A stretch of DNA of 59,724 nt from Chara braunii (Eukaryota; Plantae; Charophyceae): positions 4,568,848-4,628,571 of the forward strand of contig BFEA01000031.1 of assembly GCA_003427395.1 (NCBI GenBank), in the 5' to 3' direction. The translations under genes and the position numbers were made by a program. This document shows, piece after piece, positions 1 through 57,291 of this stretch. The notes beneath the pieces were generated by a model. That model was not told where the DNA came from. It was given only the letters and a program-made list of their open reading frames with translations, and searched no databases. Every line of letters begins with the position of its first letter. Within the stretch, counting starts at the first letter, position 1.

Positions 1-1107
1 GGGGAACAACCGGATCAACACACTCGTACTCCTAAGCAGACGGTCCCCCAGTTCAGTTTCCCCGTCCCCGCCCGGACGAGTACATACACACATACATGCA
101 TGCAATCAACAAACTTTGACAGGACATCTAATCATCCATGGACCTTCGACATCATTCGTGCGCACCACCAGCTCCCATCACTCGGGGCTTCACACACACG
201 ACATGCATAGACCAAGCAGCAATGGAGATAAAAGCGAGTCCTTCTTGTACACAAAAATTTCAATTAACTGCCGCCCCCAGGTGCAGCCTTCAAAACTCCC
301 CAAGACCACCGACCACCATAGCCACAAGGCCCTTCCGCGGCCGGCGTCCAATCCCCACCACTGCTCAGTCCCTCCGACTGCTTCGCCCCGAGACTACCGC
401 GGGTCCACCCCACGTCGTCACTCCGCCCGTCCTTGGGCTCGTCGAGCCTGTTCGGCGCCGCGGACTCTTGCGGAGCATTGCAGCCGAGATCAAAGAGAGA
501 GAGAGGAGAGGGTTGGGCAAATTTATAGCGCGGGAGGCGGCCGGTTGTTAGCGCAAGGTGCGGGCAGCGCAGGTTGTAGATGAGAAGGACAGGAGGAAGG
601 TGGGGAGTTAAAGGGTTCGACCCGCGGGATGGCATGGTCCTACGTGATTGGGGTGTCCGTTCAAGTGGCGCATGGTTTCCCGCTCTCCACATTGATCCGA
701 GCATCCCAACTACGCGGCCAATCACTTCGCGGGGTAAGAAACGAGCTGGGCGGAGGGGAAGACGAAGAGTCCGGTCATGGGAAAAATGCACGCAGCAAGG
801 AGGGAAGATAGCGCGAGGATGCAAAGCAAGAAACGGGGATGCGAGACGCGCGAAGAAATCGGAGCTTGGGCGCGCGCGCGCAAAAATTCAAAAGTCCCAA
901 CCGCACCCGTTTGTTGGCTTTCATGTCGCGGCCGCTATTCGCCCGCGGAAGTTATTAACCAAACAAAATGAAAAAGCCGTTTCATAAAGAAAACAAAAGC
1001 AAAAAGAAAGAAACCCCCTTTCTATCCACGTCCGTAGTTCGGGACTCCCGCGGGATTTTTCCTCAGGGATACGGCAAGCCGCGCGGTACGGATCTGAGCT
1101 TATCACA
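1..1107 (-). repeat. 3' LTR of element 1 (partial)
   Basis: Aligns to 9277-10370 at offset 9276 with scattered substitutions and an indel near 975-990; starts TGTGATA on the minus strand; TATAAA on the minus strand at ~521-526. Confidence 0.88.
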
Positions 1108-1572
1108 TCTGTGATACGCAGGGGGTTCCAAAAAATTAGCAGTCTCCCGACTGCTGATGTCATCATATCTTGGATGATCGGGCGGCCTCTCCATCGTCAG
1201 CTGGCCCGATCATCTTCCTAATCTACGTGGATGCATCTTGCATCCTCCATCGCCTCCTCCCATAGTATACATCCGATCGGGCAGCCCCTTCATNNNNNNN
1301 NNNNNNNNNNNNNNNNNNNNNNNNNNNNNNNNNNNNNNNNNNNNNNNNNNNNNNNNNNNNNNNNNNNNNNNNNNNNNNNNNNNNNNNNTATATATACAGC
1401 GCGTCTCGACGCGCAAATAGGAGAAGAAGAAGAAGGGAGGCATTTAGTACGGGACAGGGGGAATAGCTTGGAAGTTGAGAGGAGCAGCGGGAGGGAGAAG
1501 CGCGGGGAGCTGCGACACCAACACAATCGGTTTGTCCTCTGCCCTACGCAGCAGCACCTCGTGGGCTGTGAA

Positions 1573-2007
1573 TCAGTGTCCCCCTCGTCCTTGCAATCTG
1601 GCCGCTTCCACCGCGTATTCGCGCACAAAGCTGCGCGCCGGCTCCCGATTCGGCTGCGGTAGGATCGTCAAGTCTCCGATGAAGGTGGCGACGCTGTGCA
1701 CGAAATTGGGTGCCACCTGGAGAGCGCGGAGCTCAATGAATACTCGGGTCGTCTCCCGGCCAGGCAACAGCGTCACGTCCACGTACACCCCCGCATACGT
1801 CAGCCGATCGCAAAGCAACGAGTACGCCGCCAAATCCGCAACCCCGGGCGCCGGCACATTCACTTGCTGAATGTCGTACCGCAACTGCCTCTCCTCATTG
1901 AACCGATGCCGCAACAGGCGATCTGCAAGTGGCGTCTGGAAATGCTCGAGGGGCTCATGCTCCGGCTGGCGATGGTTCATCCTGCTCCGTGAAACTCTCA
2001 GTACCAA
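1573..2007 (-). CDS. Extra ORF 3' of integrase, unknown function
   Basis: 144-aa globular-looking ORF overlapping the integrase end, same strand, inside the element. Confidence 0.4.
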   Translation of the reverse strand: MVLRVSRSRMNHRQPEHEPLEHFQTPLADRLLRHRFNEERQLRYDIQQVNVPAPGVADLAAYSLLCDRLTYAGVYVDVTLLPGRETTRVFIELRALQVAPNFVHSVATFIGDLTILPQPNREPARSFVREYAVEAARLQGRGGH

Positions 2008-3718
2008 TGGACGAGGCAGATCGGGAAGAGGAGGAGGAGGAGGATGAAGAAGGAGAGGGTGATCTCACAGGAGCGGGGGTCCGTAGGGGACCTAGCGATG
2101 GCTGGAAAGGCCGGAGCGCGGCCGTGTGCCGTGTCAGCGGTCGGGCCTGGGAGTTGTGACGGGGAATCAGCTTCACGGAGTGTTGTCCCTGTGCGCAAAC
2201 TTTCGTGACCTCGTAAATGCCTGTATAGCTTGGGTGGATCTTGGAGTAGCGCGCAGATTTCCGTACCTGCACCAAGTCACCAACTTTATAGCGGGGTAGT
2301 GGTCCCGCCGACGTGTGTCGATTCTCGTAATCACGGATTTGCCGTTGATGTGTCCGATCTACGGCCTGCTGTCGACGGCGAGCTAACGGGGGATAGGCCC
2401 TAGCCATTAAGTCCATGTAGTGGCGGGCCTTGTCTCGATTCTGGGCCCGCGTTGCTCTAACTTTCGTACCTACTAAGGGGGACAATTGCACCCGAGGGAC
2501 ACTATTGGTTCTCAGTTGAAAGGGGGACACCCCAGTAATACTGTGTGGGGTAGCCCGATAAACGGCCAAAATGTGGTCGACAATGACCGGCCAGGGTCGG
2601 GTGTCTCCCGCAGTGATATTACATCTAAGGGCCGTCTTAATCAGTCGGTTGGTATTTTCTACCAGGCCATTGGCTTGAGGCCAATGCCCCGACGAGTAGA
2701 TAATCTTAACGTCCGCCTTGACTAGGTGACGTTCTACTTCGCCTTGAAATTCCGACCCATTGTCCATGTGTACCTCTTCTACGTCTAGATGCATGCACAA
2801 AAATCGATTTACGTACCAGGCTACTTCCTGCGAATTCCAGTTGGTCATAGGGTACGCCTCGATCCATTTTGAAAAATGATCGACGGCCACTAAAAGAACA
2901 TTGAGTTCTCCCTGATCGACGGGCCCTCTCGGAACGTTGATATCCGTCGTATCGATGCTAACCCTCTTAAGGGGGCGCTCTACACGAGTGGGCACCATCG
3001 TCCGAGGCATCTGTACCGGCGCTTTGTCCGCCGCGCAGGCCGGGCAATTTTCAACGATGTATTTCACATCTTCCCGGATTCCCGACCAGTACCATCCGTT
3101 CTTTTCTAAGGCTTTTTCCGTATACTTGACCGCGAAATGGACCGCATCCTCTTCATGAGCGGCTCGTGTCCAATCGAACCTAGCGAGAGGGTGTGGAACC
3201 GTCAACCAGCTAGACCCTCCCTCATCATCGACTTTTCGTTTTTGTAACGTCAGTCCCTGCCAACGATAGTCCTTTGCCCGCTCCGTAAGTCTCCGCCTCT
3301 CAGCTTTACTAAGTTCTGACAGCGAGTCGCCTGACAGCCTCCGTAGCAACAGAAGGTCCGTCCAGGCTTCTGCCCAGCGGGCACTTCGCGCAAATCCGTC
3401 GGTTGTTCTGGCGTCCAGATACCGCTTCTCGGTAGGGACTTGGTCCGTTCTATAGTTGGGACAGACCCATGTCTTTTCACTTCGGTACCTAACGCACTGT
3501 CCGTGAGATTTGACCGCATGACACCGACTACATTGTACCCATAAAACAAAACTGGGCCCTCCCAGATGTGACCCTTCTTGGTCCGGGACCATAGGCAAAG
3601 TACATAAGAAATAGGGACTTAGATGCGTTTCAGGGGACGAGTAGGGACTAGACGAGAGAGCGAGGGAGTTGGATGAGGGCAAAGAGATCGCGTCTGCCAT
3701 CTCCGGCGAAACCTCCAT
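1955..3718 (-). CDS. PHD finger plus DDE integrase (pol C-terminus)
   Basis: PHD-like FLC...WVQCSRC...HGQC...WVCPN; HHCC (HEEDAVH...CPAC); D (SIDTTD), D (MDNGSEF), E (ANGLVEN); GPY/F-like YTGIYEV. Confidence 0.9.
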   Translation of the reverse strand: MEVSPEMADAISLPSSNSLALSSSPYSSPETHLSPYFLCTLPMVPDQEGSHLGGPSFVLWVQCSRCHAVKSHGQCVRYRSEKTWVCPNYRTDQVPTEKRYLDARTTDGFARSARWAEAWTDLLLLRRLSGDSLSELSKAERRRLTERAKDYRWQGLTLQKRKVDDEGGSSWLTVPHPLARFDWTRAAHEEDAVHFAVKYTEKALEKNGWYWSGIREDVKYIVENCPACAADKAPVQMPRTMVPTRVERPLKRVSIDTTDINVPRGPVDQGELNVLLVAVDHFSKWIEAYPMTNWNSQEVAWYVNRFLCMHLDVEEVHMDNGSEFQGEVERHLVKADVKIIYSSGHWPQANGLVENTNRLIKTALRCNITAGDTRPWPVIVDHILAVYRATPHSITGVSPFQLRTNSVPRVQLSPLVGTKVRATRAQNRDKARHYMDLMARAYPPLARRRQQAVDRTHQRQIRDYENRHTSAGPLPRYKVGDLVQVRKSARYSKIHPSYTGIYEVTKVCAQGQHSVKLIPRHNSQARPLTRHTAALRPFQPSLGPLRTPAPVRSPSPSSSSSSSSSRSASSIGTESFTEQDEPSPAGA

Positions 3719-3719
3719 T

Positions 3720-5180
3720 CCAGACTAAGGCGTCGTTCTTGCACAACACGTGTAGCTCTCCGTAGTGCGGTTTCATCGCCGCGACTTCTGGCCTCCACGG
3801 AATGAGTCGCTCGTTGGCGGGACACTTGTTGGGTGGCAGGAGGCGTGTTAATCCATCGGCGTTCCCATGCTGCCGCGTGGCACGGTGGCGGATGTCGAAG
3901 TCATAGTCTTGCAGACACACCGCCCACCTGCCCTGCGTCCCCGTGTAGTCCGAGTTGTTGTGTAAGGACAACAGCGACTGATAATCTGTTACCAACACAA
4001 ATTTCTGGCCATAAAGATACGGTCAGAAATGCTGGATCCCCCACACCACCGCCATGCATTCACCTTTGCACGCTTCGTAATTAGCATGCGCCTGGCTCAG
4101 CGTCTTGGACGCATACTCAATGACGTGTTCCCTTCCGTCCGCCCCGTGCTGAGTCAGCACCGCCGATATCGCCTGAGGCTGTCAGTCTGATAACAGTGCG
4201 AACGGTCTTGTCGGGTCGGGGCGCACCAACACAGGAGCAGATGTCTGAGCCTCCTTCAACGCTTGAAACGCCGCCTCGCATTCCGGCGTCCAGATCAGCT
4301 GTTCCTCTTTCTTCAGCAGGTTCGTGAGGGGCTTCGCTATACCGGCGAACCCCTTGATGAAGCGTCGGTAATAGGATGCGAGCCCTAGAAAAGCCCGAAC
4401 CTGGGTGAGTGTGATCGGCGCTGGGGCTTCTAGAACTGCTGCCACCTTCCTCGGATCCGGTCTTAGTCCCTCGACCGTGACGATGTACCCCAAGAAGAAG
4501 ATCTCCAACAAGAAGAACTCGCTTTTCTCCAAGGTCACTTTGAACCCTTCATCTTTTAGTGCATGCAAAACCCACTCAATGTGTTCCACGTGGTACTCGT
4601 GTATTTTTGAAAAGACCAAAATATCATCCATGTACACAATCACGGAAAAATTGATCAGGGGATGGGTCAGTCGGGTTTTGTTAACGAACTCAGCGAAGGC
4701 CATATTCATGGCTCGCTGAAACGTTGCAGGGGCGTTACAAATTCCCATGGGACACCGGACCCATTGCCACGTGCCTTCAAATAGGACAAAAGCGGGTTTG
4801 GGTCGGTCCTCCGGTCGGACTGCGACATGGTGAAAACCGTGTCGGATATCGAACTTGGAAAAGACTCGAGCGGCCCCGATAGTATCCAACAAATCGTCGA
4901 TTCGCGGCAAGGGATACACATCTTTGGTAGTGATAGCGTTCAATTTTCGGTAGTCGATACATACCCGGACCGAACCATTTCGTTTTGGCACGAGGACCAC
5001 GGGAAAAGACCACGGTCCTAGCGATGGTTCGACCCACCCCAACCGCTCGAATTCCCGTACCCTTTCCAACGCCAGCTGTCTTTCTTTGAGGGAATATCGG
5101 TACGGTCAGCAATGTATCGGGGCGTGATCCCCGATATCAATCGCGTGCTGTATCAAAGGGGTTAACCCTATGTTTTGGTC
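3720..5180 (-). pseudogene. pol: Reverse transcriptase and RNase H of pol (interrupted)
   Basis: RVCIDYRKLN, DVYPLPRIDDLL, PMGICNAPATFQR, VYMDDILVFS, FLGLASYYRRFI; RNase H tail LVTDYQSL...RWAVCLQDYDF...NADGLTR; stops at ~5106, ~4182 and ~4023. Confidence 0.92.
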
Positions 5181-5885: not shown

Positions 5886-7226
5886 TCAGATCATGTTGAT
5901 TTGATAGGCTTTCGTGGTGAGGCGAGGCGCCAGCTGGGTACACGTGCGCACCGCCAGTCTCATTGGTATCGTTTGGGGTTTGGGGTGGGCCGATGTGAGC
6001 ACCACCTTACAGTTGTCAAAGTGCATTCGCGCTCCGACCGCCGCCTGCCACGGAATGCCTAGCAGAACATCATACGCCTGTACATCCAGCACGATCACGT
6101 CACACAAACAATGCACCCGCCCCACCCGTATAGGCATGTTCATTATTCGCCCTTTACAATGAATATTGTCTTCCGTAGCGGATATATACAACTCATCCGG
6201 TCAGAGGGGATGAACCTGTCCTTCCCTTCCCAACCTTTTCGTCAATCTCCAAGAAATGGCGACCGCCGACGATCCGGAGTCTAGGATGGCGGCCGAGGGG
6301 TTTCTCCAGACCTCGCAGTCACACTCAACGCTTTTCCAGGTTATAGGATAGGCTCGGAGGAATACATCGGGTTTTTCCGAGGCAGAGTCTACGGTCTGGA
6401 TCATTCCTATCCGGTCGGCTTCGTGCACCTTTGAGGTCGAGGGCGGCGACTCCTCGTTTGTGGGTAGGTCCCGTAGGACCGACTTTTTGCCCTTTCGACT
6501 TTCCTCGAATCGGCGCCTGTTTTTGGGGCACCGTTCGATCAACTTTTCGTTAGCCGCTTCGGAAATGGTTAGCAGATAGGGAATAGGGACGGGGATCCGA
6601 AGATCCAGAGCCTTCAAGGCATCCAATACGTCGATATGGCCATCCTTGCATTCAGGGCCAGGTGCTGCAAGGTCTTCGAACCCTGGTCGCCACGGCCCGA
6701 GGTCGCTTTGCTTGGTAATTCGTTGGACGTGACGTATCACTCCAATGGTCCCGGGTTCGAACAAAGCCGCAACCATGTATTCATCGGGCCCTATCTCGGT
6801 GGCCGCAGGGGTCACCATTTCCGTTGCCTCGGTATCCATCACCGTGGCCACCCTCCCCTGTCCTGCAACGGTTGGAGCAGCCAGCGGGATTTGGGAAGGC
6901 CCAGCAGGCCCACCCTGAGCTCGAGGTTTCGGGCAATCTTTCGCAAGGTGACCTGGATGATTGCAGTTATAACAGCGTAGGGACTGGACAGCCCCGACCG
7001 CGACCGGTCTTATCATAGGGGCCCCGGCGGCCATAGCCGCTTGTTGCCGTTGTGTGGCAGCTAGGCGTTGCCGCTGCAGGCCCTGAACAAACTCCGTCAA
7101 CGGGGCCACTACCGTAACTAATTGGGCCGCGACCTCCTTCATGGACACTTCTTCTTCACCCCGGCCTCCTTGTGCTTGACTAGGGCGACAGGAGGCCGAA
7201 GCAGAGGAAGACGCTCTCTGATCCAC
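5886..7226 (-). pseudogene. Gag zinc knuckle plus aspartic protease (frame change from gag, in-frame stop at ~6201)
   Basis: CYNCNHPGHLAKDC (CCHC knuckle); AILDSGSS protease active site; C-terminal YDVLLGIPW in ORF 5886-6191. Confidence 0.85.
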
Positions 7227-7975
7227 ACCTTTTTTGTTGGACCCAACTCGAAGCGATCTTCGAACATTCGTGTCGTAGCGGAGTTGCTATTGCGTCGAAC
7301 ACCCGAAGGGTCATCTTCGTCGGATTCTGAGTCTAGGCCCACATCGTAATTTTCTTTCCCGTACTTAATTGCATATTGAATTAGCTCCGTCAGGGTATGT
7401 TTTATAAGGTTGCATTTCTTGCGGATCTTTTTCCGCAGACGAGAATCTGACAGTCCTCTGATGAAATCAATCCGTACCATTTTCTCGTCCACCCCGGAGC
7501 GTTCGGCTAAGTACGTAAAACGTTCAGCATATCTGGCCAAGGTCTCCCGAGGCTGCTGCGTGTTATCCTTTATTAAACGAAGGCATTGACCTGGTGCGAT
7601 CTGATCAAACCTATCGAGGAATTTCCTCTGGAAGGCTGCCCAATTGGTGAAGAGGTTATGTCCATACCACTCCAACGCGGTTCCGGCTAACCTTCCGGGA
7701 ATTCGTTCTCGGAGCAACTGATCCGACCAGCCCTGGGCTTTCAAGGCAGCTAGCCAGGTGCGAGGGTCGGTGTCGTCTTCGGAGAAAATAGGAACTTCGG
7801 AACGAGGAGGTACAAAGTACAGGGGATAATTCGCCATCCCCGCGTGGTTGTCGCCGTCATTTTCACCCCCAATTCCGGGTTCCACCATCCCGGGAGGTGG
7901 GTTTCGAGCCCGGCCTCTCGCTCGGTTTTGATTGCTATTCGCGGGTCTCCGTCGACGGGGAGCCAGCCTACTCAA
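7139..7975 (-). CDS. gag: Gag (capsid-like region)
   Basis: Retrotransposon-gag motifs LAGTALEWY, WAAFQRKFLDRF, QQPRETLARYAERF, FIRGL. Confidence 0.85.
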   Translation of the reverse strand: MSRLAPRRRRPANSNQNRARGRARNPPPGMVEPGIGGENDGDNHAGMANYPLYFVPPRSEVPIFSEDDTDPRTWLAALKAQGWSDQLLRERIPGRLAGTALEWYGHNLFTNWAAFQRKFLDRFDQIAPGQCLRLIKDNTQQPRETLARYAERFTYLAERSGVDEKMVRIDFIRGLSDSRLRKKIRKKCNLIKHTLTELIQYAIKYGKENYDVGLDSESDEDDPSGVRRNSNSATTRMFEDRFELGPTKKVWIRERLPLLRPPVALVKHKEAGVKKKCP

Positions 7976-8073
7976 AATGTGAAAAATATAATGAAAAGAT
8001 CAAAAAGAAAAAAAGGAGAAACTTTAAAACAGGGTAATCGTCCTAGGAAAACCTCGGAGCCGAAACGAACCTC

Positions 8074-8085
8074 GCTCCGATACCA
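8074..8085 (-). promoter_or_regulatory. PBS-like motif (tRNA-iMet type)
   Basis: Minus strand reads TGGTATCGGAGC versus the canonical plant iMet PBS TGGTATCAGAGC; lies ~100 nt upstream of gag. Confidence 0.7.
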
Positions 8086-10370
8086 ACCTCACGCCCCCTC
8101 GCGGCTTCCCGTACGGGGTCGCCGATCAGAGTTCTAGGAGCGGCGTGGCCGAGGATTTTTGGCCATAAGGGTTGAGTCTCCCGGAGGGAACGGGAGGCCC
8201 TCGTTTCGTGCCAGAGGTTTTCCCCAGAGTCAAACTGTCGTCGCGGAGTCCCGTGGGGGTCGGATCACTTCGAAACGATAAAATCAAAAAAGGTTCCGCA
8301 AAAATGAACTGTCGTCATGCATCGGGACGGAAAAAGGCATCAAGCGGGGGGAGGGCCATGGCGACGGAGGACAAAACTTCGGCCGTCAGGGGTTTGGGGG
8401 ATAGGTGGCGGGTTCGAAGCCTTCAGGCCTCATCATCGGCCTCACAAAGTGGCCAAACCCTCAGGTCTTTGTTGTGGAGGTGGTTGGTTCGAGGCCTTCA
8501 AGCCTCGGCGTCGGACTCACAGAGTCCGCGCGAAAGTTTCCGGGAGGGTAAAGCGGCGGGAGGACTCGCCGACATCTGAATTCGAAATTGCGTGGGCAGC
8601 GCCCCCGCACTACGGGAAAGCTCGGGGAAACGTGTCGCTCCCTCGTAACCCAAGACCAGCCGTCGCCAAGAACACGAGTCCCCCTGGCGACACCAACGAC
8701 AATCAAACTGCGGCCGCCACACGACGTGAGCGGCCGACCATGGCAACACCGTCAAACCTGTATATGGCAATATTTAAGTTAGAGTCGGGGAATCAAAACG
8801 ATCAATCAAAACAAACCCGTTCCCCCTTATCTCACAAACCCGAGGCGGGTCTTGCCAACACACTTACTCCGTCCGCCTCAGCGCGCGCCGTACGTCCGCA
8901 TCGCAATAGACGCTGTCGTCATCTGCGATGGGGAAGGTCGGTAGCGAGATGAGACGATCGGAGGTACGTGATGAACACGGCAAGGTCCCGTGTTCTCGTT
9001 CATCCAAACCAACACCGAATCCATACAACAATCGTCGCAACTCTTCTCTCTCTAAGGTGGGTGCGTCGAGGGAAGACGACGAAGTCTAAGCTCTCTCCCC
9101 TTGCGGGGGCGTCGACCGTTCACGCGGATGCAAGCGATTGACGTCACCGGTACGGGGGCGAGAAGCTAAAAAAGCGATGACTATTAGTTCAAAAAGGAAA
9201 GCAATCGAGAGGGAGAGAGAGAGAGAGTGAGTTACGCCGAGACCGCGCACCAGCGCAGGAAAGACCACTGAGGGGAGGGGAACAACCGGATCAACACACT
9301 CGTACTCCTAAGCAGACGGTCCCCCAGTTCAGTTTCCCCGTCCCCGCCCGGACGAGTACATACACACATACGTGCATGCAATCAACAAACTTTGACAGGA
9401 CATCTAATCATCCATGGACCTTCGACATCACTCGTGCGCACCACCAGCTCCCATCACTCGGGTCTTCACACACACGACATGCATAGACAAAGCAGCAATG
9501 GAGATAAAAGCAAGTCCTTCTTGTACACAAAAATTTCAATTAACTGCCGCCCCCAAGCGCAGCCTTCAAAACTCCCCAAGACCACCGACCACCATAGCCA
9601 CAAGGCCCTGCCGCGGCTGGCGTCCAATCCCCACTACTGCTCAGTCCCTCCGACTGCTTCGCCCCGAGACAACCGCGGGTCCACCCCACGTCGTCACTCC
9701 GCCCGTCCTTGGGCTTGTCGAGCCTCTTCGGTGCCGCGGACTCTCGCGCAGCATTGCAGCCGAGATCAAAGAGAGAGAGAGGAGAGGGTTGCGCAAATTT
9801 ATAGCGAGGGAGGCGGCGGGTTGTTAGCACGAGGTGCGGGCAGCGCAGGTTGTAGATGAGCAGGACAGGAGGAAGGTGGGGAGTTAGAGGGCTCGACCCG
9901 CGGGATAACATGGTCCTACGTGATTGGGGTGTCCGTTCAAGTGGCGCGTGGTTTCCCGCTCTCCACATTGATCCAAGCATCCCAACTACGCGGCCAATCA
10001 CTTCGCGGGGTAAGGATCGAGTTGGGCGGAGGGAAAGACGAAGAGTCCGGTCATGGGGAAAATGCGCACAGCAAGCAGGGAAGATGGCGCGAGAATGCAA
10101 AGCAAGAAACGGGGATGCGAGACGCGCAAAGAAATCGGAGCTTGGGCGCACGCGCGCAAAAATTCAAAAGTTCCAACCGCACCCGTTTGTTGGCTTTCAT
10201 GCCGCGGCCGCTATTTGCCCGCGGAAGTTAATAACCAAACAAAATGGAAAAGAAAACAAAAGCAAAAAGATAGAAAACCCCTTTCTATCCGCGTCTGTAC
10301 TTTGGGACTTCCGCGGGATTTTTCCTCAGGGATATGGCAAGCCGCGCGGTACGGATCTGAGCTTATCACA
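8086..10370 (-). repeat. 5' LTR of element 1 (~2.3 kb)
   Basis: Right end TATCACA at 10370; left end placed next to the PBS-like motif at 8074-8085 (boundary approximate). Confidence 0.8.
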
Positions 10371-11479
10371 AGCCCCCTGGGAGGGTGCCTGAAAGCCTCC
10401 AGGCATCTGTCCAAGCAAAAACTACTCTTGTGATCTTTACCCAATGGGGTTTCCAACTTTCCACCATTGTTGGAGACTGTCTACTAAAGGGCAGTACAAC
10501 CAAATATGGATCATATTCTCCCAGCCACAATTGCATCGCGGACATAAGGTGGAGATGTCCATTCCTCTTGATGATAGCCACACAAACGTGGCTGTCACCA
10601 GGAGCGACTGCAGCCACATTATGCTAGCCTGTTTTTGGACTCCCAGTCTTGTCAATGTCGTCCAAAATTGGGACAGACTTTGTTTTGTGACCTCCCTTAA
10701 TTGATGTGACTCCCCTCGTTTCAGGGCCACTGAAGTAGGAGATCTCTTCAAGCGTGTTGGGACTGTATTTCAATAGTTCATGGGTGTACTGTTTCTCGAT
10801 TGATGCGTGGTGCGTGGCTTCCCTTGCGGAGGGGACACGCATATCTTCTCTCACAACCGGATGTCCGGAAGGACTGTTCATGGGTGTAGCAAAGCAACTG
10901 CGTTTGTTGTAATTTGCTTTCAATATCTGAATCTATCAAACACACAACCGCTATATGTATTGACTAGCTTCAGGCCAGTTAGGGCCTCGCTCCACTACTG
11001 TCGACATGGATAAAAGACAAATTAGACAATTTAGACAAAAAAAATCAATGGGGGTGTATCTTTCCATATTCTAGCGAAAGATTCACTCTCCTTTTGCACG
11101 TTTTGAGAGTAGTGGGGCGATTTCCTTAGTCCCCCAGCGTCTTCACTGAAGGGCACAGAGACCTCGATATTGTCGTCGCCGACGTCGTTGCCACCGAACA
11201 GCCGCCAGAAACGACTTCGCCCTCGGAAACTCAAATGCATGTAACCGCAGCAGTGGTCTAGTTGCTGAATCGTAGGGCGATAGCCAGCGGCATGTCTTAC
11301 GTGCGAGTTAGCTAAGGGTCATTCTTCTAACCCGTCAATCTAGTGTAGTCAACCCGGCCAATCTAGTGTAGTCAACCCGGTCATCAAGTGTAGTTGACGA
11401 GCGCGAAAGGTGATGATGGCATACTAGATCCTGCTGCTTCCTGGACTTCACGGTGCACGCTGCATGCAGAGTGGCTGGC

Positions 11480-12660
11480 TGGGGATGCATCAGGTTAGTG
11501 CTACTTGGTTCTTTCTCGTTCTGTTTGCCTTGGGCCTTATCTCTGTACTACAATTTTGCCCCGACTAGAACGCAAATGCGTTGTAATCGAATACAAGTCA
11601 TTGGTCGTTTTCAATTCAAATACAACACCCGGGCATACAGTTAAAACAGCCCTTCTAACCGAATCTTTCACTTTTTTGGCTGTTTGAATCATCTAATTCC
11701 CGCGCCCCCCCCCCCCCCCCCCCAAACCCCCACCCCAAACCCCCACCCCAACGCATATGAGTTATGTTTGCGGGAAAGCGGTAGGGATGTGTGAGTTTGC
11801 TACAGGGTTCATTATTATCATCACCATTTCGCTCACTTTCCGACCTTGATATTGCCGTCATGGGTATCGTTGCCGTTGAGGCTGCGTGGGGCACTTGCTG
11901 GCGATGCATCATTAGGTTAGTGTGGCTCCTTCTTTTCTCCTTCTGTTTGCGTTGGGGGGCCTTATCTCTGTACCAGCCTGCTACGGATGGAGGTGCGAGT
12001 TTACTACACGCTTCAGGATCCATCATCAATGTTGACCATTTCTTTTTCAATCTGTTCCTACCGTCTTCACCGGATACAACGTACGGTCATTGGGCCTGTA
12101 TTTGGGGCAACTTTCAGTCTAGATACAACAATTATATTGATCATACATTGTATTGGGGTGAAGACGGAAGTTGTCATCATTCCCTTCCGCTATTGTTCGA
12201 ATGGTATATCATGTTCATATGATGATCGCTGTAGCAATCGGAGAACATCATAATCTTATATGATGGCTTCGCTCTTAAATGGAAACGTTTATGTAACTAG
12301 GGGCAAATTGGAGATATACGGCTTTCGAAACATACGCAGTCAGGAGAGTCTGCCTCCTTCTTTCTCGGTCTGTTTGCGTTGGGCCTTATATCTCTGTACA
12401 CTACCTACCTATCTACCTACCTACCTAGGGATGTGCGAGTTTGCTACACGGTTCAGTATTCATTGTCACTTGCACTGTTTCTTTCTTGCATGTGTTGCTA
12501 GCTGTCGTTCCCTTCTCCTGTGGTTCACTTTTTTTGTTCGCTATGTGCTCATATCATGTTATGAGCGCTGTAACAATAGGGGAACGTATATACGATGGCT
12601 TCGCTCTAAAAGGAACAGTTTCTTACGGGCAAATTGCAAATATACCGCTTCCAAACCGTA
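11480..12660. repeat. Old degenerate tandem duplication (300-450 bp units)
   Basis: Motif ttctttctc.ttctgtttgc.ttgggccttatctctgtac at ~11509, ~11930 and ~12358; segment ~12205-12330 resembles ~12548-12655. Confidence 0.7.
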
Positions 12661-12694
12661 GTCTAGAAATGTAAGTTTCAAAAAACCCTCGTTC

Positions 12695-14612: not shown

Positions 14613-14973
14613 CCCTCCTTCGCTGTAGTTTCATAGCAAAAGTAGTGGTGGGCTCCAAGTTTTGTTGCAAAAATATATATGATCTTTCGTTGCAGCTTTA
14701 CAGGTCCCGCTAGGTGGTCCCACTTGCACGAATTAAGAGATACTGACCGTAGATAGCAAAGATCAACGGCCAAAATTTCCTAATCTGTGCAAGTGGAACC
14801 TTGCCCCCGGGGTCGTTTCACAGCAAAAATGTTTGCAGGAGGGGTCGCACTTTCATTCCACAAAAAAGAAAAAAAAAACATCTTTCAGACCCCCACATCA
14901 TTTCCGCGAGGAAACTTCGAAAACGCGCCAAACTATACTACCTGTCCGCGTAGGTATTGAAAAAAAGTGCGCG

Positions 14974-15310: not shown

Positions 15311-15443
15311 ATGGGACCTCGCTCCGCTACTCTTGACATGACATCGTGCAAAACGAAAGTGAATCTTCCGCTAGAACATGGAAAGATACACCGCCATGAC
15401 TTTTGTCTTTTGTGCATGTCGACAGTAGTGGAGCGAGGCTCAT
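15311..15443. repeat. Fold-back/MITE-like element with conserved core
   Basis: Arms cctcgctccgctactcttgacatg / catgtcgacagtagtggagcgagg around core gtgaatcttccgctagaacatggaaagatacaccgcca. Confidence 0.75.
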
Positions 15444-32300: not shown

Positions 32301-32758
32301 ATTAAAACCGACTGTTGGGAAGAGCCTGAAGAGTGCGCTTTTGTACAGTTTGCCTCGCGTTTTACTTTTGTTGACGGCCTTGCTGCGGTAAAGGCAGCGC
32401 GATGGACAACAGAACAGCAGAAGCAGCAGCAGTGACAATTGCGTTAGAAAGAGGTGCACCGACCTCGGGTAAGAAACGCAGGATTGTTTTCACCTGCCTT
32501 TCTCTTTTTTGTGTCTTCCGGTGGAAACTAAGGATTGAGCTATTGTGCAATGCTTTTGATGTTCGACACTGAATCGACAGGTCTTCGCAACGGCAGGCCG
32601 CTTCGTCATAACGACGATCAACTTATTCAGACCTCTACAGCAAAGCCGACAAAGGCACCGTAAACTCATCTGGAGCCTCGGAGCAGCCGAGGTCTCCGAC
32701 AATCGCGCTCATCGAGCTGTGATGAACAAGATGGATTGAATTTCGAAAGAGGGTCAGC

Positions 32759-38513: not shown

Positions 38514-40329
38514 NNNNNNNNNNNNNNNNNNNNNNNNNNNNNNNNNNNNNNNNNNNNNNNNNNNNNNNNNNNNNNNNNNNNNNNNNNNNNNNNNNNNNNN
38601 NNNNNNNNNNNNNNNNNNNNNNNNNNNNNNNNNNNNNNNNNNNNNNNNNNNNNNNNNNNNNNNNNNNNNNNNNNNNNNNNNNNNNNNNNNNNNNNNNNNN
38701 NNNNNNNNNNNNNNNNNNNNNNNNNNNNNNNNNNNNNNNNNNNNNNNNNNNNNNNNNNNNNNNNNNNNNNNNNNNNNNNNNNNNNNNNNNNNNNNNNNNN
38801 NNNNNNNNNNNNNNNNNNNNNNNNNNNNNNNNNNNNNNNNNNNNNNNNNNNNNNNNNNNNNNNNNNNNNNNNNNNNNNNNNNNNNNNNNNNNNNNNNNNN
38901 NNNNNNNNNNNNNNNNNNNNNNNNNNNNNNNNNNNNNNNNNNNNNNNNNNNNNNNNNNNNNNNNNNNNNNNNNNNNNNNNNNNNNNNNNNNNNNNNNNNN
39001 NNNNNNNNNNNNNNNNNNNNNNNNNNNNNNNNNNNNNNNNNNNNNNNNNNNNNNNNNNNNNNNNNNNNNNNNNNNNNNNNNNNNNNNNNNNNNNNNNNNN
39101 NNNNNNNNNNNNNNNNNNNNNNNNNNNNNNNNNNNNNNNNNNNNNNNNNNNNNNNNNNNNNNNNNNNNNNNNNNNNNNNNNTGTGTGGGCGGTGGGGGGG
39201 AAGGGGGGCAACCCTCCCCCAACCAACCAACCAACCAATCAATCAATCAATCAATCAATCATCAATCAATCAATAATCAATCAATCTTTTTTTTTTCCCC
39301 CCGAAACCCCAGCACCCTCCAACCCCCAACCAACCCCCGAACGAACAATCTTTTTTACTTCGATGGCGGAGCCCCCGGCGTGCTCAACCCCCCCCCACTG
39401 CAGCATGCCCCCCCCCCACTCCCTCAGGTGTCAGAAGCCCTCTGGGAAGGCTGTCGAAACGGCTTGTACGGCTGTACATACGGCCCGTACGGTCGCATGG
39501 GGGCCCATACGTACGGCCGTATGGACCGTAAGGCCGCCCCGTATTGGTACAGGGTGCAACATAGGAGTACGCCTCACAAACGGTACCAAACGAACGACAG
39601 AACGATCCGGACCCTCAAGGACAATGCTACGCGGTAATTTGGGGAATTCAACGCTTTCATCCTTATTTGTACGGGCAGAAGTTCCTTCTCGTTACGAATC
39701 ACGATCCTCTATTGGCTCTGAAGAGACTCACGAACTACACGGGGATGATTGGGCGATGGGCCGTACGGGCTGCAGGAGTATGACTTCGACATCGCACAGA
39801 GGAAAACCCAGAAGCACGGGAAAGCGGACGGGTTGTTACGACTGCATTGACCAGGCAAGGTAGCCAAAGGGGAAGATATCACTCCATGGAAAGAGCCAGA
39901 GGCCCAGAGCTGGCCAAAGGACCGACGTACGAAAAGGTGACCATCCTCCCCAGAAGAACCAAGAAGTGACACCGTTGACACTTGGGCTCATTGTTGAGGG
40001 CGGAGAAGGTAATAACGGACACCCTCTCTTTCCCATCCCTTCGTCTTTTCTTTCCTTGCCTGACCAATTCTGTTATTTTTGCGAAGCTATCTCACGAGTC
40101 TATTCGGTTTCGATGCACCCACGAGGGGAGGGCTACGCAGAATGGGTAGATTGCTGCAAGTGCGTCTCAAGGGCCCACGGTTCCTGTATCCAGTATAGGA
40201 ACCCGCATAAGCCATGGCTCTACCCCTTGTGCCGTACCGACAAAATCCGGACAAAAGTTCGATTCCTCGAGGCTACATCGGAAGGAATCGAGAAGACGCG
40301 GCGATTTAGAAGAGCGAAAGTGTGGACAG

Positions 40330-40597
40330 CAGTGAAACGGTATGCGCGCGTTTAAGCGCGCTTGGGCGTGCTTGAGCACGCACTTAAAGACTCCTGCGCC
40401 TCGCTCAAAGCGCTTAAAGGCACGTGCGCGCGTCAAAAAATCAGCCCGCGCGCGCCACAGGGTTGAGCGAGGGCAGGGGACGCCTTGGGGCCATTTCCAC
40501 GCAAAAACAAAACAAAAAAATGCGCAGGGTGTATTTTTGGGGGGTCGGGGGTAGGGTCGCCGTCGTCGCCGTCGTGGTCGTCGTCGCCGTCGACGCT

Positions 40598-40633
<36 letters not shown>

Positions 40634-40649
40634 GGCGCGCGCTCATGCG

Positions 40650-40712
<63 letters not shown>

Positions 40713-41309
40713 ATGGCGCGCACTCCGACTGCGCGTGCAGGCTTGGGCGATGGCGGTTTGCTCTAACTCTCTCTCTCTATCTCTCTCTCTCTTATGGCGC
40801 GCGCTCCGACTGCGCGTGCAGGCCTGGGCGATGGTGGCTTGCTCTCTCTCTCGCGCGCGCGCGACTGCGCTTCAATGTTTGAGCGTGCACACACGCGAAT
40901 GAGTGCACGTTCATCTACGCAGCGCTTAATAACGTTTGGTTGGAATTTTTTTTTTTTTTTTTTTTTTTTTAATTGTTCGGTGGTCTTCAGGTCGCTAAAC
41001 CCCCCCNNNNNNNNNNNNNNNNNNNNNNNNNNNNNNNNNNNNNNNNNNNNNNNNNNNNNNNNNNNNNNNNNNNNNNNNNNNNNNNNNNNNNNNNNNNNNN
41101 NNNNNNNNNNNNNNNNNNNNNNNNNNNNNNNNNNNNNNNNNNNNNNNNNNNNNNNNNNNNNNNNNNNNNNNNNNNNNNNNNNCCCCTCCCTGGTATTGAG
41201 TTCACCCGCGAACGAGCTCGAGGTGCTCAAGGCGCGCTCGAGCGCGCTTTTGAACGCGCTCAGAAACATGAGCGTCGGGCCCATGCTCAATCAACGCGCG
41301 TTTTCATTG
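40330..41309. mobile_element. Non-autonomous hAT-like element inserted in element-2 integrase
   Basis: Perfect 8-bp TSD gtggacag (40322-40329 / 41310-41317); ends cagtgaaac / ttttcattg; subterminal (t)tgagcgcgc-type repeats; (CT)n interior; contains a gap. Confidence 0.82.
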
Positions 41310-41959
41310 GTGGACAGATGTCGTTCTGATAGCTGCCGTAGTTGGAAACTCTCTTTGAGAATTCTCTAAGGAGGATCTGAGACGAGCTGACGAAAGGGCT
41401 CGGGATTATAGATAGAACGAAGGACGTTTAGAGAAGCGAAAGACGGATGGGAGTGGGATCGAGATGTTTGTACCTCACCCGTTCATGAGATATGATTGGG
41501 TAAGGTTGGCCCGTGAAGAGACCGCCGCGCATTTCGCTGTCAGGATTACGGAGTCGGCCATCGACAAAAGTAAATGGTATTGGTCTAATATTAGGGACAA
41601 CGTTAAATTCATTGTCAAAAATCGTCCTGCCTGTGCGTCCGGTGTTAGTTCAACCGCCTAGGTCGATAACACCAACAATATTCGAACAGCCGTTCCAAAG
41701 GGTCAGCATGGACAATACGAAAATCATGGTCCCCGCAGGACCCTCTCGGTCCTAATAGTTGCGAATATTCAGTCCTCCTAGTATTCATGGATCTCTTTTC
41801 CAAATGGATCGAGGCCTACCCGTGTAGAACGAGACAGACGACGAAAATTGTGCGGTATGTCAATCGTTTTCTCAGGATGCATTAGGACACCGAGGAAATA
41901 ATGACGGACAACGAAGCAGAATTATGAGGGGAGGTTTTGAGAAGCCTGGTTGTACATGG

Positions 41960-42347
41960 AGAGAATGTTAACAACAGTCGTATTTTTCATCACCACCTCA
42001 GAACACCCTTCACCACTTCAGGATGCAGCCTGCCTAAACAGGTGGTTTTCACGGTCTTCGGACCTTTCACCACTTCAGGACACTCTTCACCACTTCAGGA
42101 TGCTACCTGCCTAAGCAGGTGGTTTTCAGTGTCTTCGGACCTTTCACCACTTCAGGACCATTCAGGATTTTCTGACTGCCTAAGACTCTCGCTTCACCAC
42201 TTCAAGATGCAGCCTGCCTAAACAGGTGGTTTTCAGGGTTTTCGGAGCTTTCACCACTTGAGGAGCATTCAGGATCTTCAGACTGCCCAAAACTCTCACT
42301 TCATAATTTTCATTCCTGAATTTTCAGCTACCTATTAACCGCTTGTG
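41960..42347. mobile_element. Minisatellite-built insertion in element-2 integrase
   Basis: 9-bp direct repeat tgtacatgg (41951-41959 / 42348-42356); repeated ttcaccacttcagga and ctgcctaaacaggtggttttca; integrase resumes after it. Confidence 0.7.
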
Positions 42348-43481
42348 TGTACATGGTGTCTTTATTCGGAACACTCCTCCCCATATGTCGCAATCAAAAT
42401 GACTGGTAGAAAACACAAACCGGGTGATTATGATGGTCATTTAGCATAATATCACGACCAACGACACGAGGCCTTGGCCCGACATCGTGGACCAAATTTT
42501 GGCCATCCGTCGAAGAACGCCTCACGAGTCTACATATTTGTCCCCATTCCAACTGTGGACCAATAGCCTAGCCTGCATAGCCTTGCCCCGACCTCAATGA
42601 TGAAACGGCGCTTAGTCAACGGCCTACGAGGGCAACGACTAGAGATAAAGCCAAATGTTATCAGGAGTTGATGAAAAATGTCCTCCCTTGACTAGCTCGA
42701 AAAAGACAGCGGAAGACCGAAATGACTCATGATCAGCAAGTGCGGAGCTATGAGGCCCGAAATGGGAATGCTCGGCCCCGACCCCCATATAAATTGAAGG
42801 ATATCATGCAAGTAAGGAAATGTGCTCACCACTGAGTCACCAGGGTAAGCAAGCGCCACGATTCTTTGGCCAATTTCACGTAGTCAAGCTAAGACTCAAC
42901 GGTGTGAATACGATGCGCTTTGTTCCGGACGTCTCAGGCAGCCGATCGGCTCACCCCATCATCCGCCACATGTCCTATCTTTGTCCCCTGTCCGCCTCCT
43001 CTCCTCCATCACCACTTGACTCATTCCAGATCTCTGAGTGGGAGGGCGAGGAACCGAAATCTCCTTCTTCCCCCTCCTTCCTTGATTCACCCTCTTTGAC
43101 TCCGGTGTCGCCATGAGCTTCGCAACGGAACAGATTATCAGTCGGCGCATGTTGACGGCACGGGGTTTCCTTTACTCAGTACAACAGGTTCGACATCCCC
43201 GACTCAGCTTGGATCTACTGCGATTTGTGCAGTTTTTCAGCACGACAAGTATTTAAGCGGCGACCGAGTTCAAGTTCGTCCATCTTGGGACTACAGGAGG
43301 GTCGTGGCCGAAGGATCGGTGTTTCTAGGACTCTCTCCTCCGAGGATCAGCCATGTGTCGGTGCTTATCTCGTTTAGCGGGGACATTTCATCATCAAACG
43401 AAGGTTCCCACGACAACTGTATTCTACGATTGCGGGGTTGGGAAGACGAGTTGGCGACTACGTGGAGGAACAGGTTGACGC

Positions 43482-52513: not shown

Positions 52514-53757
52514 GTCACAGTGTACATTTCCATGTTCGAGCAGACGATCCATTCGATTTTACCGTGGGGTTGGAGACCTAGCCGTTGCGTAGCCCATCTT
52601 GTAGATGGAAAACTCTCTCTCACACACACACGCAGTGTTACACACACACATACATACACACACACACACACACCGGCGCGCGAGCGCCCGCACACGGAGC
52701 TGAAGTGTTTTTTTTTTTAATTTTCTTTTGTTTTTAGTTTGTATCGAGTGACCAAGGGGTGCCGGCAACCCTTCCACACCTCCCATAACCCCCCTTGCTG
52801 AAACACCCACCACCCAATGCGTTTCAGCGCAGCCGCAAACGCGACAAAAACGTTCACCCGTGTTCGATGAACGTGCGTTCAACGCGTTCAAAAACTGAAC
52901 GCGGAACCCATGTTCATTGAACGTGCGGTTACATAGCCTTGAGTTGAAGGAGGAAGAAGAAGGACGCAATGGCGGGCCGACTATAGTATGGTCCAGCAGG
53001 AGAAGAACCCGCAGCCCCTTACCCACCGCTCAGCCCTACGCATACGTACAGATGCAGACGATCGGGCTGCATCCCCGGTCATTTTCTCGCCATCCCCTTG
53101 ACTACCTTTCCTTTCACCAGATCGTGGAGCGCCCGCCCTTCCCTGACACTTGGCACTCGTTCCCCCCCTCTCTATTTTGTCATTTCTATGCCACATGTCT
53201 CGTGTGTGAAGATTTCCCCCACTCGATTACACAATCTCTTGTTTCCTTTTTTTGCCTCCATATCTTCCTCTTTAGCGTGGAATGGCGAGACTTCAATAGT
53301 GTTGAAGTCTATTGCTTGATCATGGGAACAATCCCCGCCCACGCACAATACGAACAGTTTCTGGCTGACCTCCTCTGCACCCTGTGTACCCTTTACCTCG
53401 ACTATCTTGCTTTCCTCCTGTATCGCAATTGTCGCTTCTCATGTGTCCATTGGCTGGTACGGTATGCCACTACCCCCACCGGAGTGCGTCCCATAGCTCT
53501 CTTCATCCTACCGCTTCCTCAATCGCACCCGCCTCCCCCCCCCCCAGTATTGAGACTACCCGCGCCACCAGAAGAGCGGTGATCATCGGTGATATGTAAG
53601 TGGAGATCGGGACAGAAATCGGGCATCAATGGGGGTCCTCCTCTCCTCTTTCTTTTTTCTCTTACTTCTTCCTCCCTTACTTTCCTCTTCGTGTGCAGGG
53701 CATGGAGTATGCAAGTATGAGCGTGCATAGGATTGGAAACCCCTTGGGCGTCACATA

Positions 53758-55151
53758 TGTGACGAATTATTTTCTGTAAACGCTTGACCTTCTGCACGAG
53801 TGTATTTCGGGGTCTAAATGGGAGGGGCCCGCCCAATTACATAAATGTCCCTCTCCTTTGGAGGGATGGTGGTCCGACAATGGTTGGTAATTCATTGTGC
53901 CTTAGGGAGCGTGGAAATAACTGTGGCCATAACGTTTTTTTTTTTCTGTTGAGGGAAGGAAAGTTTTAGCGCAAACACCGTGCACGGAATCCTTTTTTTT
54001 TTTTTTTTTGAACCCACACGAGTTCTCTGGATTTCTTTTCGTAATTAGGATTTTAATTAGGCTAGGAATTTGGGAGCATCGTAATTTTTTTTTGTTGCAA
54101 CTAAATGAGGCTCTGAACTTGTGTGTGCATTCTCGCGTCTTGTTCCACGCTCTGCCCCTGCCGCGCCTAACTTCTAACCGTAATTGTAATCTCTTCTTGC
54201 TCCTTCTTGGCGAGCGTATTTGTTACTGCAATCCTCTCACTTCTTGATCTCCTCCCTTTCTTTTGCCGCACAAAGTTTCTCTGCGCCTTGTTCCTGTGTA
54301 TCTCAATGGCCTACAGGTGCATGACTGCATTGATGCGTGTAGAGTGGCTGCGTCCCCCACTCCGCGACCCCCTAATGCACCGACATGCACTTCCTCTTCC
54401 TTTCTGCTTCTCGCTTCAGCATAATCCAGAGTTATCTTGCGCACCTACTGGCTGCTATAAAGCTCAAGTGCTCGACTAATTCACTCTCTAGTCCACACTT
54501 GGGAGTTAGCGCAGTCGAGAGGATCGGCAAACGAGCGTCGAGTGGAGCCAGAAAGCTGAGTAGGGAGTTAGTATCCGACGAGCTAGTGCCGAGTAGGCCG
54601 GGTTGACGTGTGGCTGCGAACGGCTGTGGCATACAAACGAACCTGGTTTGCCTACCAAGACTAAGCGGGATGACAACTTCGGGATGTTGATAAGTGCGAG
54701 GCGACGGACTGCCCAGATCGAGGGAATTTTGAAAGAGGGAGAAAGAGAAGGTCGCGTGCTGAAGTGGGAAATATTTTATTCAGCAGTTCTCTCCTTCTGC
54801 GTAATTTTGATATCTGGCTTCGACCATTCTTGATTGCAGCACTTATGGACCTTCCTGTCTTGTCTTCGATTGATGTATGAAACATCTTTACCTCCCCCCC
54901 CCGTCCTCCGCTCTCTCCTCTTCGGTTTTACTGTATGAAGGATCATTATTGATCATAGCTAGGTAGCACGACGTACACCCACTTGGGCTCCACATACGTG
55001 CCTACGCGTATGCACGTATGCGCATACGTGTCGCATACGTATGAGCGCGTACTCAAATTTAGGGCCCGCGTACGTGGTCACAACGGGTCGTTTCCCGGGT
55101 TTGTCTTGGCCCGGTAGGGGTTGGGGGGTGGGCGTTGGGATTGGTTGGTGT

Positions 55152-55198
<47 letters not shown>

Positions 55199-55284
55199 TG
55201 TGTGAGAGAGAGAGNNNNNNNNNNNNNNNNNNNNNNNNNNNNNNNNNNNNNNNNNNNNNNNNNNNNNNNNNNNNNNNNNNNNNN

Positions 55285-55357
<73 letters not shown>

Positions 55358-57291
55358 GCCTCCCCCTCTTCCTCCTCCTGCCGATCTTCTTCAGCGTCCT
55401 GCTCCTCGGCCCGTGGTACTGTCTTTTTGTCTGTCTGTCCAGTACGGGCGGAGGAGGAGGGGTAGTAGGAGGAGGAGAAGGACAAACAGACAGACAGAAA
55501 GACAAACAAACAGACAGACAGACAGACACACAGACAGATAGACAGATAGACAGTACGACGGGCGGAGGACAGACAGACAGACAGACAGACCGACCGACAG
55601 ACAGTACGACGGGCGGAGGACAGACAGACAGACAGACTGACAGACAGACAGACAGATAGACAGGAGGGGGAGGACAGACAGACTGACTGACTGACTGACT
55701 GACAGACAGACAGACAAACAAAAAGGAGGGGGAGGACAGACAGACAGACAGACTGACATAGAGACAGACAGTACCACAAGAGAGGTAGGAGGAGGGGTAG
55801 GAGGAGGAGGATGGGTAGGAGGAAGGGTAGGAGGAGGAGGAGGACGAAGATCACGATCGGGAGGAGGAGGAGATATGTGACTAAATACTGACTAATATAT
55901 ATATGATATATACATTATATATATGTGTAAGAAAAAACAAAAAAAAACGCGTACTCGTATGCGGGTTTTTGTGCGTGTACGCATACGCGTGCATGCGTAC
56001 GGGTACGAGCGCATGCGTACGGGTACGCACCGCGTACGCGTACGTGGTGCTACCCAGGATCATAGAAACGAGGGTGCAAGAAATAAACGCCTTCTGATGT
56101 ATGGAGATATGTATGTGCTTCCGCTCACTTTTGAAATGACTATGTCTTTGTGGTGATCAGATGTGTGATCGAGTTGTCCCCCGCAAACCAACCTGAGTCA
56201 GGCGCAGATGCATGTAGAACGGGCATGTTGTGATCTGTGTATTCGCCTGAGTGTGGGTTGGATTTTTCCCATGCATGAATTGCACACAATTGACGTCTGA
56301 TGTATAGGAATGAATGTTCACTTCTCTCCTTATGACTGTCGAATGGCCATCTGGCCTATATGAGTTGGTTTGGATTCGGTGGGAATAGATCAGGTGCACC
56401 CACGTATACGAGCGATCACCAGACGTCAGTCGTCACGTATACGTGTGTCTGCCTGGCTTGGCCACTCCTTCCCTTGCACGACCAAATATACGAATTAAGC
56501 CTCCCTTGTCAAACATGGATGTCGCTGTTCCATTCTAGATCATGAACCTTACCAGTATGAGGAACCCCGAGTACATGGAATACTGGGAGAAAGAACAACT
56601 CCGGCGCCAATCGAACTTACGGCTTCCAGCCTACCCTTGTCAAACGAAGGACGATCGACTGTGTGTTTGGGACTTTCACCAGGCCCTTGGACGAAATCCC
56701 CGAACTCGAGATTGCCCCGACCCCCGTAATTATCAGTACCATCTGGTGTTCGTCGCCATCGAAACCGACTTTCCTCCATTCTATGTCCTTCTATCACCAT
56801 CTGACGATAGTTCCCTGGGATTCGATTGCACACTGCTGGCCCCAGAGGCCGTGTTCTGAGTATTGTTAGTACGACACTCACCAGGCAGCGGGATTCGTGC
56901 GACAAACCCGCTCTAAAGCTGAGCACCAAAAACAGTCTTCGACTGAGGCCGTCCACGTCGGACTTGGAGATCTGTGAAATCCGCCAGCGGCAGGTGTTTG
57001 GACAGGGAGACACCCATTGTGTTCCATCAGTGCACCAGGTGCGAGCCCACCCGAGGCGACGGGCCCAACGAAATTAGTCGCTCGACCATGAGAAAAGGCA
57101 AAACCCAAGACCTGGCCCTGAACAGAAACCGCTTGCATTTCCATCCCCGAAACTTGACACCGGAGATCTCAATTCCGACCTGGGACTCCACCCCACTTTC
57201 CTAAAATCCTNGGCACACCCCTACTACGCACTTTTCNCCCCCTATCACTCCGAAAACAGGAAGTCACGCTGGGCNTGAGTTGGACGTCACA
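53758..57291 (+). repeat. 3' LTR of gypsy element 2 (~2.4 kb excluding the nested insertion)
   Basis: Perfect terminal inverted repeat TGTGACG...CGTCACA; TATAAA at ~54456; patches matching the element-1 LTR (gtgtgatcgagttgtcccc ~56163; aaaatcctnggc ~57203; gggcntgagttgg ~57271). Confidence 0.72.
54959..56057. mobile_element. Non-autonomous hAT-like element inside the element-2 LTR
   Basis: Perfect 8-bp TSD gatcatag (54951-54958 / 56058-56065); TIR ctaggtagcacgacgtac / gtacgtggtgctacccag; subterminal cgtacg/cgtatg repeats; (TG)n, (AG)n, (GACA)n interior. Confidence 0.88.

Follow-up and report, generated by a model that had tools for sequence, protein, structure and literature searches.

Features of the window

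The window analysed here is a 59,724-nt stretch of the Chara braunii genome (contig BFEA01000031.1, positions 4,568,848 to 4,628,571), and an ORF in it is 100% identical to Chara braunii CBR_g31759. Two diverged LTR retrotransposons, element 1 on the minus strand and element 2 on the plus strand, were identified in it (Table 1). Read on the minus strand, element 1 runs from the 5' LTR (10370-8086) through a primer-binding site (PBS), gag, protease, reverse transcriptase, RNase H, integrase, an additional reading frame and an assembly gap to a junction and the 3' LTR. The PBS, TGGTATCGGAGC, is presumably of the initiator-Met tRNA type, and reads aligned at its boundary with the 5' LTR revealed no insertion there in other copies of the family. 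Ahead of the integrase, at the place that a PHD finger takes after RNase H in elements of the Gypsy-7a_cRei type, a Cys/His stretch resembling a degenerate PHD finger can be recognized by eye, with no Pfam match; no Pfam match was seen for the frame that follows the integrase. The 15 best integrase matches are all from Chara, and the one after them has 28% identity. Element 2 has many interruptions, and its integrase is ~55% identical to that of element 1; a ~3.7-kb unit is present within element 2 as two copies in tandem, with ~90% identity.

Outside the two elements, the window contains a non-LTR (LINE) element with endonuclease and reverse transcriptase domains, an 893-codon frame with an FHA domain that is probably a host gene exon, and a dispersed ~120-bp repeat whose copies, present in both orientations and 73–93% alike, are possibly the ends of DNA transposons. 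Also present are a 33-nt tandem repeat of ~7 copies and a microsatellite-rich insert between two inverted arms of ~100 nt.

Table 1. Features of the window, with positions counted from its first nucleotide.
Feature	Position	Strand	Remarks
Element 1 3' LTR (A2), first 1107 bp	1..1107	-	94% to 9277-10370; remainder beyond window
Element 1 internal att junction, TATCACA-ga-TGTGATA	1101..1116	-	right att, 2-bp spacer, left att = 3' LTR start at 1107
Element 1 B1, TG-CGTATCACA	1110..1120	-	segment found again at right end of family copies (loose ends at 8084)
Element 1 conserved box, TTGGAACCCCCT	1120..1131	-	T run before it; 11/12 nt common with element 2
Element 1 assembly gap	1294..1388	.	bridged by single contigs
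Element 1 post-integrase extra reading frame	1456..1986	-	tblastn of P0002, 92%; kept in several Chara copies
Element 1 integrase ORF	1955..3724	-	H2C2, rve; D-34-E spacing
Element 1 reverse transcriptase and RNase H	3750..5105	-	disrupted by stops and frameshifts
Element 1 gag and protease	6201..7999	-	Retrotrans_gag, CCHC knuckle; protease motif by eye; two frames
Element 1 PBS	8074..8085	-	adjoins 5' LTR
Element 1 5' LTR (A1), 2285 bp	8086..10370	-	starts TGTGATA, ends ...GGGGGCGTGAGGT; without CA, without B
~120-bp repeat copies	10982-11120, 15317-15439, 24260-24376, 24941-25062, 25431-25551, 26466-26556		both orientations
LINE element	17117-21744
FHA-domain frame	32726-35407
33-nt tandem repeat and inverted arms	37060-37356 and 37881-38511
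Element 2 RNase H and integrase remains	39565..42981	+	broken by insertions and gap
Tandem ~3.7-kb unit within element 2	46148-48796 and 49834-52459
Element 2 box, B1 (TTGGGCGTCACA) and junction, CGTCACA-ta-TGTGACG	53733..53764	+
Element 2 3' LTR	53758..57291	+	gap inside; probable insertion ~54960-56060
Element 2 B2 (TTGGACGTCACA), right end	57280..57291	+	directly after stretch homologous to element 1 U5 end

A palindrome in place of an adjoining purine tract

An earlier note on this DNA had described a palindrome at the 3' LTR junction of each element in place of the polypurine tract (PPT), and both observations were confirmed. Read on the minus strand from 1131 to 1101, element 1 gives TTGGAACCCCCTG-CG-TATCACA-ga-TGTGATA, and the match between its two LTRs stops exactly at TGTGATA. 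Element 2 reads TTGGAAACCCCTTGGG-CGTCACA-ta-TGTGACG; the palindrome is as previously given, with the start of the segment at 53733 instead of 53734. Nowhere else does the window contain a CA-nn-TG palindrome whose arms are 7 bp long and whose spacer is 2 nt. Across 200 dimer-block shuffles the mean count was 0.29, with P(>=2)=0.025, a value that gives no credit for the position of both palindromes at an LTR start; a third palindrome with 7-bp arms, at 1229-1245, has a 3-nt spacer. In both elements purines make up 7 of the last 15 nt ahead of the 3' LTR, and the upstream purine runs of at least 8 nt amount to one in element 1 (9 nt, 154 nt away) and none within 198 nt in element 2. Apart from the conserved box, the upstream sequence is not alignable between the two elements; the box lies at the predicted end of a plus-strand primer.

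Summed contig depth was 13,500–14,200 just inside the junction and 12,100–14,800 across the integrase ORF. The 40 differences with the best support all lie outside 1093-1190 (194 weaker ones were also recorded). Because the depth at the junction equals that of the integrase ORF and no top-40 difference is located there, the junction is a trait of the family, as had been proposed from the two elements. The assembly gap, which had been raised as a place where unrelated elements might have been joined, is bridged weakly, by one contig from 1293 to 1391 and another from 1212 to 1391. None of 56 RNA reads from run X9 (~6% of the run examined) spans the junction. In the same run, 12 RNA reads at 600-1107 go from foreign flank into the LTR start in the sense of the element, which is read-through into another copy.

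The right end of the family

Reads aligned to the LTR end of element 1 revealed a second type of copy, in which GAGGT-TG is followed by CGTATCACA and then by unrelated flanks. CGTATCACA consists of the left arm of the palindrome and the two bases preceding it. The DNA contigs, from three runs of a single sample that is possibly the assembly's own, end loosely at 8084 with a mixed flank followed by TGTGATACG in 17, 20 and 27 cases (64 in total), and their agreement over 30 letters (0.57–0.60) fits 9 shared letters followed by unrelated flanks. Four RNA reads of another study also exhibit the CGTATCACA right end. The extension is found at the end of 3' or solo LTR copies; it is missing from the 5' LTR, which is followed immediately by the tRNA primer site. 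Among these contigs and reads, no Chara copy with both ends was seen. Within the window, element 2 carries its own B at both places: its B2, ~3.5 kb after the LTR start, is a copy of its own junction arm. The stretch preceding this B2 aligns to the U5 end of element 1 with a score of 59 versus 30±5 (0/500 shuffles), and it is the best of 262 tiles (56), but the next tile scores 54.

The layout of the family is A1-PBS-genes-B1-nn-A2-B2, where nn is ga in element 1. Because B is repeated as the true right end of the element, the palindrome is made up of the two attachment sites for the integrase, the right one and the left one, placed head-to-head with 2 bp between them, and the covariation of its arms is that of two ends. 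The arms do match each family's own LTR terminus, as the earlier note had pointed out in arguing for selection, but this is the ordinary covariation of left and right attachment sites. The same note had suggested that the lineage may define its U3 end in this way; the junction defines both ends of the element, U3 being one of them. The flanks of element 1 and of the loose ends suggest a target preference resembling GGGG-RGCY-CCCC (10371-10390, 57292-57295 and the ends at 8084): the flank consensus ends in GGGGAGCT in two runs, and element 1's own flank in CCAGGGGGCT. The flanks of the RNA reads and of element 2 fit this pattern more poorly.

Classification

The gag-PR-RT-RH-INT domain order (by Pfam, with the protease by eye) and the tRNA PBS after the 5' LTR match the Ty3/Gypsy group (Metaviridae). 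The LTRs are not equal TG...CA repeats, as the 5' LTR ends in GAGGT and other copies add CGTATCACA, and no PPT abuts the 3' LTR. By its proteins the family is Ty3/Gypsy, and it departs from that group in these two structural features. Compared with canonical members (PMC6317226), it shares the domain order, the tRNA PBS, TG...CA at the ends of the element and a DDE integrase, but differs in its unequal LTRs, the lack of an abutting PPT, the internal att junction and the D-34-E spacing.

Integrase spacing could be scored on 92 of 157 proteins (65 had no match); it is D-34-E in 13 of these, namely the Chara elements, P0058 and P0152, and 35 in the other 79, with one Chara model, P0056, also at 35. 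In a quick RH+IN tree of the 108 of 157 proteins having both domains, a set without the Chlamydomonas library sequences, the Chara rows, P0058 and P0152 split from 99 others with an SH-aLRT of 98, a value to be read with a long-branch caveat. P0058 (JGI) and P0152 (ENA) are not from Chara; they have a TDW RNase H, a D-34-E integrase and a PHD finger, and additionally carry an adenine (PF05869) or cytosine (PF00145) methyltransferase domain. A search for the P0058 locus found none, the junction patterns had no match in viral and metagenome contigs, and the RNase H pattern of the clade had none in viral, metagenome and prokaryote contigs. An alignment search returned 5 loci, and the three examined are not of the Chara junction kind. 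Three LTR-retrotransposon-like contigs (L001, L002 and L003) are filed under viral contigs; L001 has an ordinary purine tract ahead of its terminal repeat.

Three known groups were considered and rejected. Chromoviruses (Chlamyvir, Tcn1) do not fit, as no chromodomain was detected by Pfam and the tree, with the same long-branch caveat, sets apart the chromodomain-bearing P0053 and P0157. Troyka elements have CG...CG ends and a CX2CX8-10HX4C motif (PMC12440569), where Chara has TG...CA and CX2CX4HX4C. PAT/Ngaro elements of the DIRS type are excluded by the Pfam rve integrase and the absence of a tyrosine recombinase in 16 ORFs. A possible affinity is with Phygy of Physcomitrium, described as having a tRNA-Trp PBS and a 4-bp NCGN target; the Chara PBS differs, and the Chara flanks look like RGCY. 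In elements of the Gypsy-7a_cRei type from Chlamydomonas, B stands before nn and the LTR at the junction and recurs at the right end but not at the left, and this layout is found in the Chara family.

Relatives in Chlamydomonas

The comparison with Chlamydomonas is based on the curated consensus entries in the supplement of PMC9940879, read by eye and covering all but ~10 of ~76 Gypsy headers. According to the legend of Fig. 6A of that paper, the last 8 bp of the right LTR are missing from the left one in the active Gypsy-7a_cRei, and 86 new insertions of this element are reported in CC-4532 (PMC9940879). Among the entries listed, 16 of the 26 C. reinhardtii Gypsy entries with a readable internal end have CA-gc before the TG of the LTR, and in 15 of these 16 the curated LTR end repeats the 6–51 nt preceding gc; the remaining entries listed have a normal PPT at the LTR (7/26) or another arrangement (3/26) (PMC9940879). 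A G-rich tract ends where B starts in families 3, 6, 7, 8 and 9 and in C. incerta families 1 and 3; in families 2 and 11, what precedes B is a shared non-purine motif and not a purine tract (PMC9940879). In the full-length Gypsy-4_cInc the left LTR continues into TGG and the right LTR has 7 extra nt at its end, and in the canonical control Gypsy-2_cInc the LTR ends are equal (PMC9940879). The spacer is 2 nt in all cases seen in Chara and Chlamydomonas. In Gypsy-5a, 21 and 24_cRei the internal part opens with gc, after which the start of the LTR is repeated, so that the layout is mirrored (PMC9940879).

The earlier note had allowed that the trait might be known from other green-algal gypsy elements, and the layout is indeed present in this library. 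Its claim that the PPT is absent stands for the position at the LTR; in the Chlamydomonas entries available the tract is often displaced upstream of B rather than absent. The Gypsy-7a_cRei group resembles the Chara family in its unequal LTRs, its internal end of B, 2 nt and LTR, and the lack of a PPT at the LTR, and Gypsy-7a_cRei also has a D-34-E integrase (translated by eye) and no chromodomain listed (PMC9940879). The Chara family differs from this group in having the TTGGAAMCCCCT box and no G-rich tract before B, perfect 7-bp arms, a GA or TA spacer rather than GC, a Met-type PBS, and TDW rather than TDF in RNase H (PMC9940879).

A proposed route of integration

From the layout of the sequences, we consider it likely, with a probability of roughly two in three, that the Chara family joins the ends of its cDNA and that the integrase cuts the resulting junction to insert the element. 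The textbook precursor for LTR elements and retroviruses is a linear cDNA with att sites at its ends, and priming of the minus strand by tRNA is established biology. In the proposed route the tRNA would prime the minus strand at the PBS, and the right end of the cDNA would then be the U5 end, without CA. The plus strand would begin just upstream of B, putatively at the TTGGAAMCCCCT box in Chara and at the G-rich tract in most Chlamydomonas families, giving a left end of B-nn-A. Head-to-tail joining of the two ends, by ligation or by a jump of the reverse transcriptase, would produce U5-B-nn-U3, either in a circle (closed or nicked) or in a dimer. The DDE integrase would then cut after each CA with loss of the 2-bp spacer, and the inserted copy would have A on its left and A+B on its right, which matches the integrated layout seen.

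Because priming at the PBS makes U5 the right end of the cDNA, B2 cannot be inherited from the 3' end of the RNA and must be copied from B1 in every cycle. Joining of the ends is supported by the coincidence of the left edge of B with the end of the G tract, a predicted plus-strand start, for B segments of 6 to 51 nt, and this match is the strongest argument for it. Against it, no purine tract that could act as a plus-strand primer precedes B in Chara or in Chlamydomonas families 2 and 11. A circle would hold two junctions, and the Chara data show one of the two possible products; the U5 sequence beside B may select which junction is cut. The mirror layout of Gypsy-5a, 21 and 24_cRei would be expected from cutting the circle's other junction. 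Integrase cleavage at an internal att-like junction, one of the two routes offered in the earlier note, is the best reading. Microhomology at TG was considered as a general rule of joining and rejected, as it holds in Chara and fails in Gypsy-7a and Gypsy-4_cInc.

The first alternative, which we regard as unlikely, is that the cDNA remains linear: in one further short jump the reverse transcriptase would add a copy of B at the right end and then stop, and the integrase would process the ends separately, trimming the long left overhang. The integrated product would be identical, the linear precursor of retroviruses would be retained (PMC11054761), and the jump could be guided in element 1 by the TG shared by the PBS start and B, and in element 2 by a B starting with TTGG. 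This requires, however, a precise stop ~2 nt after B without a signal and the transfer of a B of 49–51 nt as exactly as one of 6–9 nt; the joint shares at most 1 letter in Gypsy-7a and Gypsy-4_cInc, and the fixed 2-nt spacer is better accounted for by a concerted cut.

The other route offered earlier, priming of the plus strand from a hairpin formed by the palindrome, is very unlikely. A 6-bp stem is possible on either strand in both Chara elements, but folding is modest (z -1.5 to -2.2), the arms pair over 3 bp in Gypsy-7a_cRei and 4 bp in Gypsy-3, many relatives have a G-rich, primer-like tract upstream of B, and a hairpin gives no B at the right end. Equally unlikely is the idea that the right-end B was left behind by an atypical primer of the minus strand, namely a fragment that is complementary to B, mimics the tRNA and has its copy kept in the element: the B of element 1 does resemble the PBS (TG-GTATCA versus TGCGTATCA), but the B segments of element 2 and of Chlamydomonas are unlike their PBS-like starts, and Chara copies keep a tRNA-type PBS. 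Gaps in both elements and the heavy interruption of element 2 might point to an assembly join or to an insertion, nested or tandem, that arose by chance. This is scarcely credible given the family-wide depth of the junction and a layout common to two diverged Chara families and two Chlamydomonas species, and the insertion of one LTR element 2 bp from another, which the earlier note had named as a possible undoing, is ruled out because the sequence upstream of the left arm and B1 is not LTR-like (best E 0.56).

Joining of the cDNA ends followed by cutting of the junction recalls a model put forward for retroviruses. Panganiban and Temin proposed in 1984 that the 2-LTR circle junction is used (as described in PMC11054761), a route later set aside for retroviruses in favour of a linear DNA precursor (PMC11054761), and in foamy virus, junctions of this kind are cleaved by the integrase on either strand, after CA (PMC1180852). 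The likeness lies in two head-to-head att sites, a short spacer and a cut after CA, but in retroviruses the junction is confined to circles that have not integrated, and the precursor is linear DNA (PMC11054761, PMC1180852). In the Chara family the junction is encoded by the element, and the cDNA's own right end would, from the layout, lack an att site. PAT/Ngaro elements, which use a tyrosine recombinase, have split direct repeats in an A...BA...B layout and an inferred circular intermediate. The Chara family has the same layout and a putative circle, but differs in its DDE integrase, its tRNA PBS and an A that is a full LTR.

Implications

Part of this is already in print: the 8-bp LTR asymmetry of Gypsy-7a_cRei is given in one legend, and the junction is implicit in the curated library (PMC9940879). 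The available text of that paper offers no mechanism for the asymmetry, and no account of a junction or mechanism is given in the accessible parts of PMC8226300, PMC3350952, the bioRxiv Chlamydomonas v6 paper and the 2026 DAM-LTR preprint; a literature search that covered part of the relevant texts found no account of the junction or the route.

A broader reading, for which we see about even odds, is that an old clade of integrase-encoding LTR elements, present in Chara and Chlamydomonas and without att sites at its cDNA ends, integrates obligately via a self-encoded circle junction, with the Panganiban-Temin route as its natural life cycle; some families would cut one junction and some the other, and in Chara a non-purine plus-strand primer would be read by an altered RNase H. 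As Gypsy-7a_cRei is naturally active in common Chlamydomonas strains (CC-4532 and CC-125), the question is directly testable. The circle-junction route is now treated as a historical error or a side path, and here the layout of a widespread natural family seemingly requires it. Annotation tools that require a PPT and equal LTRs with TG...CA ends would be inclined to overlook such elements or to misplace their boundaries. If true, the proposed route would connect elements that use an integrase with the split-repeat principle known from elements that use a tyrosine recombinase.
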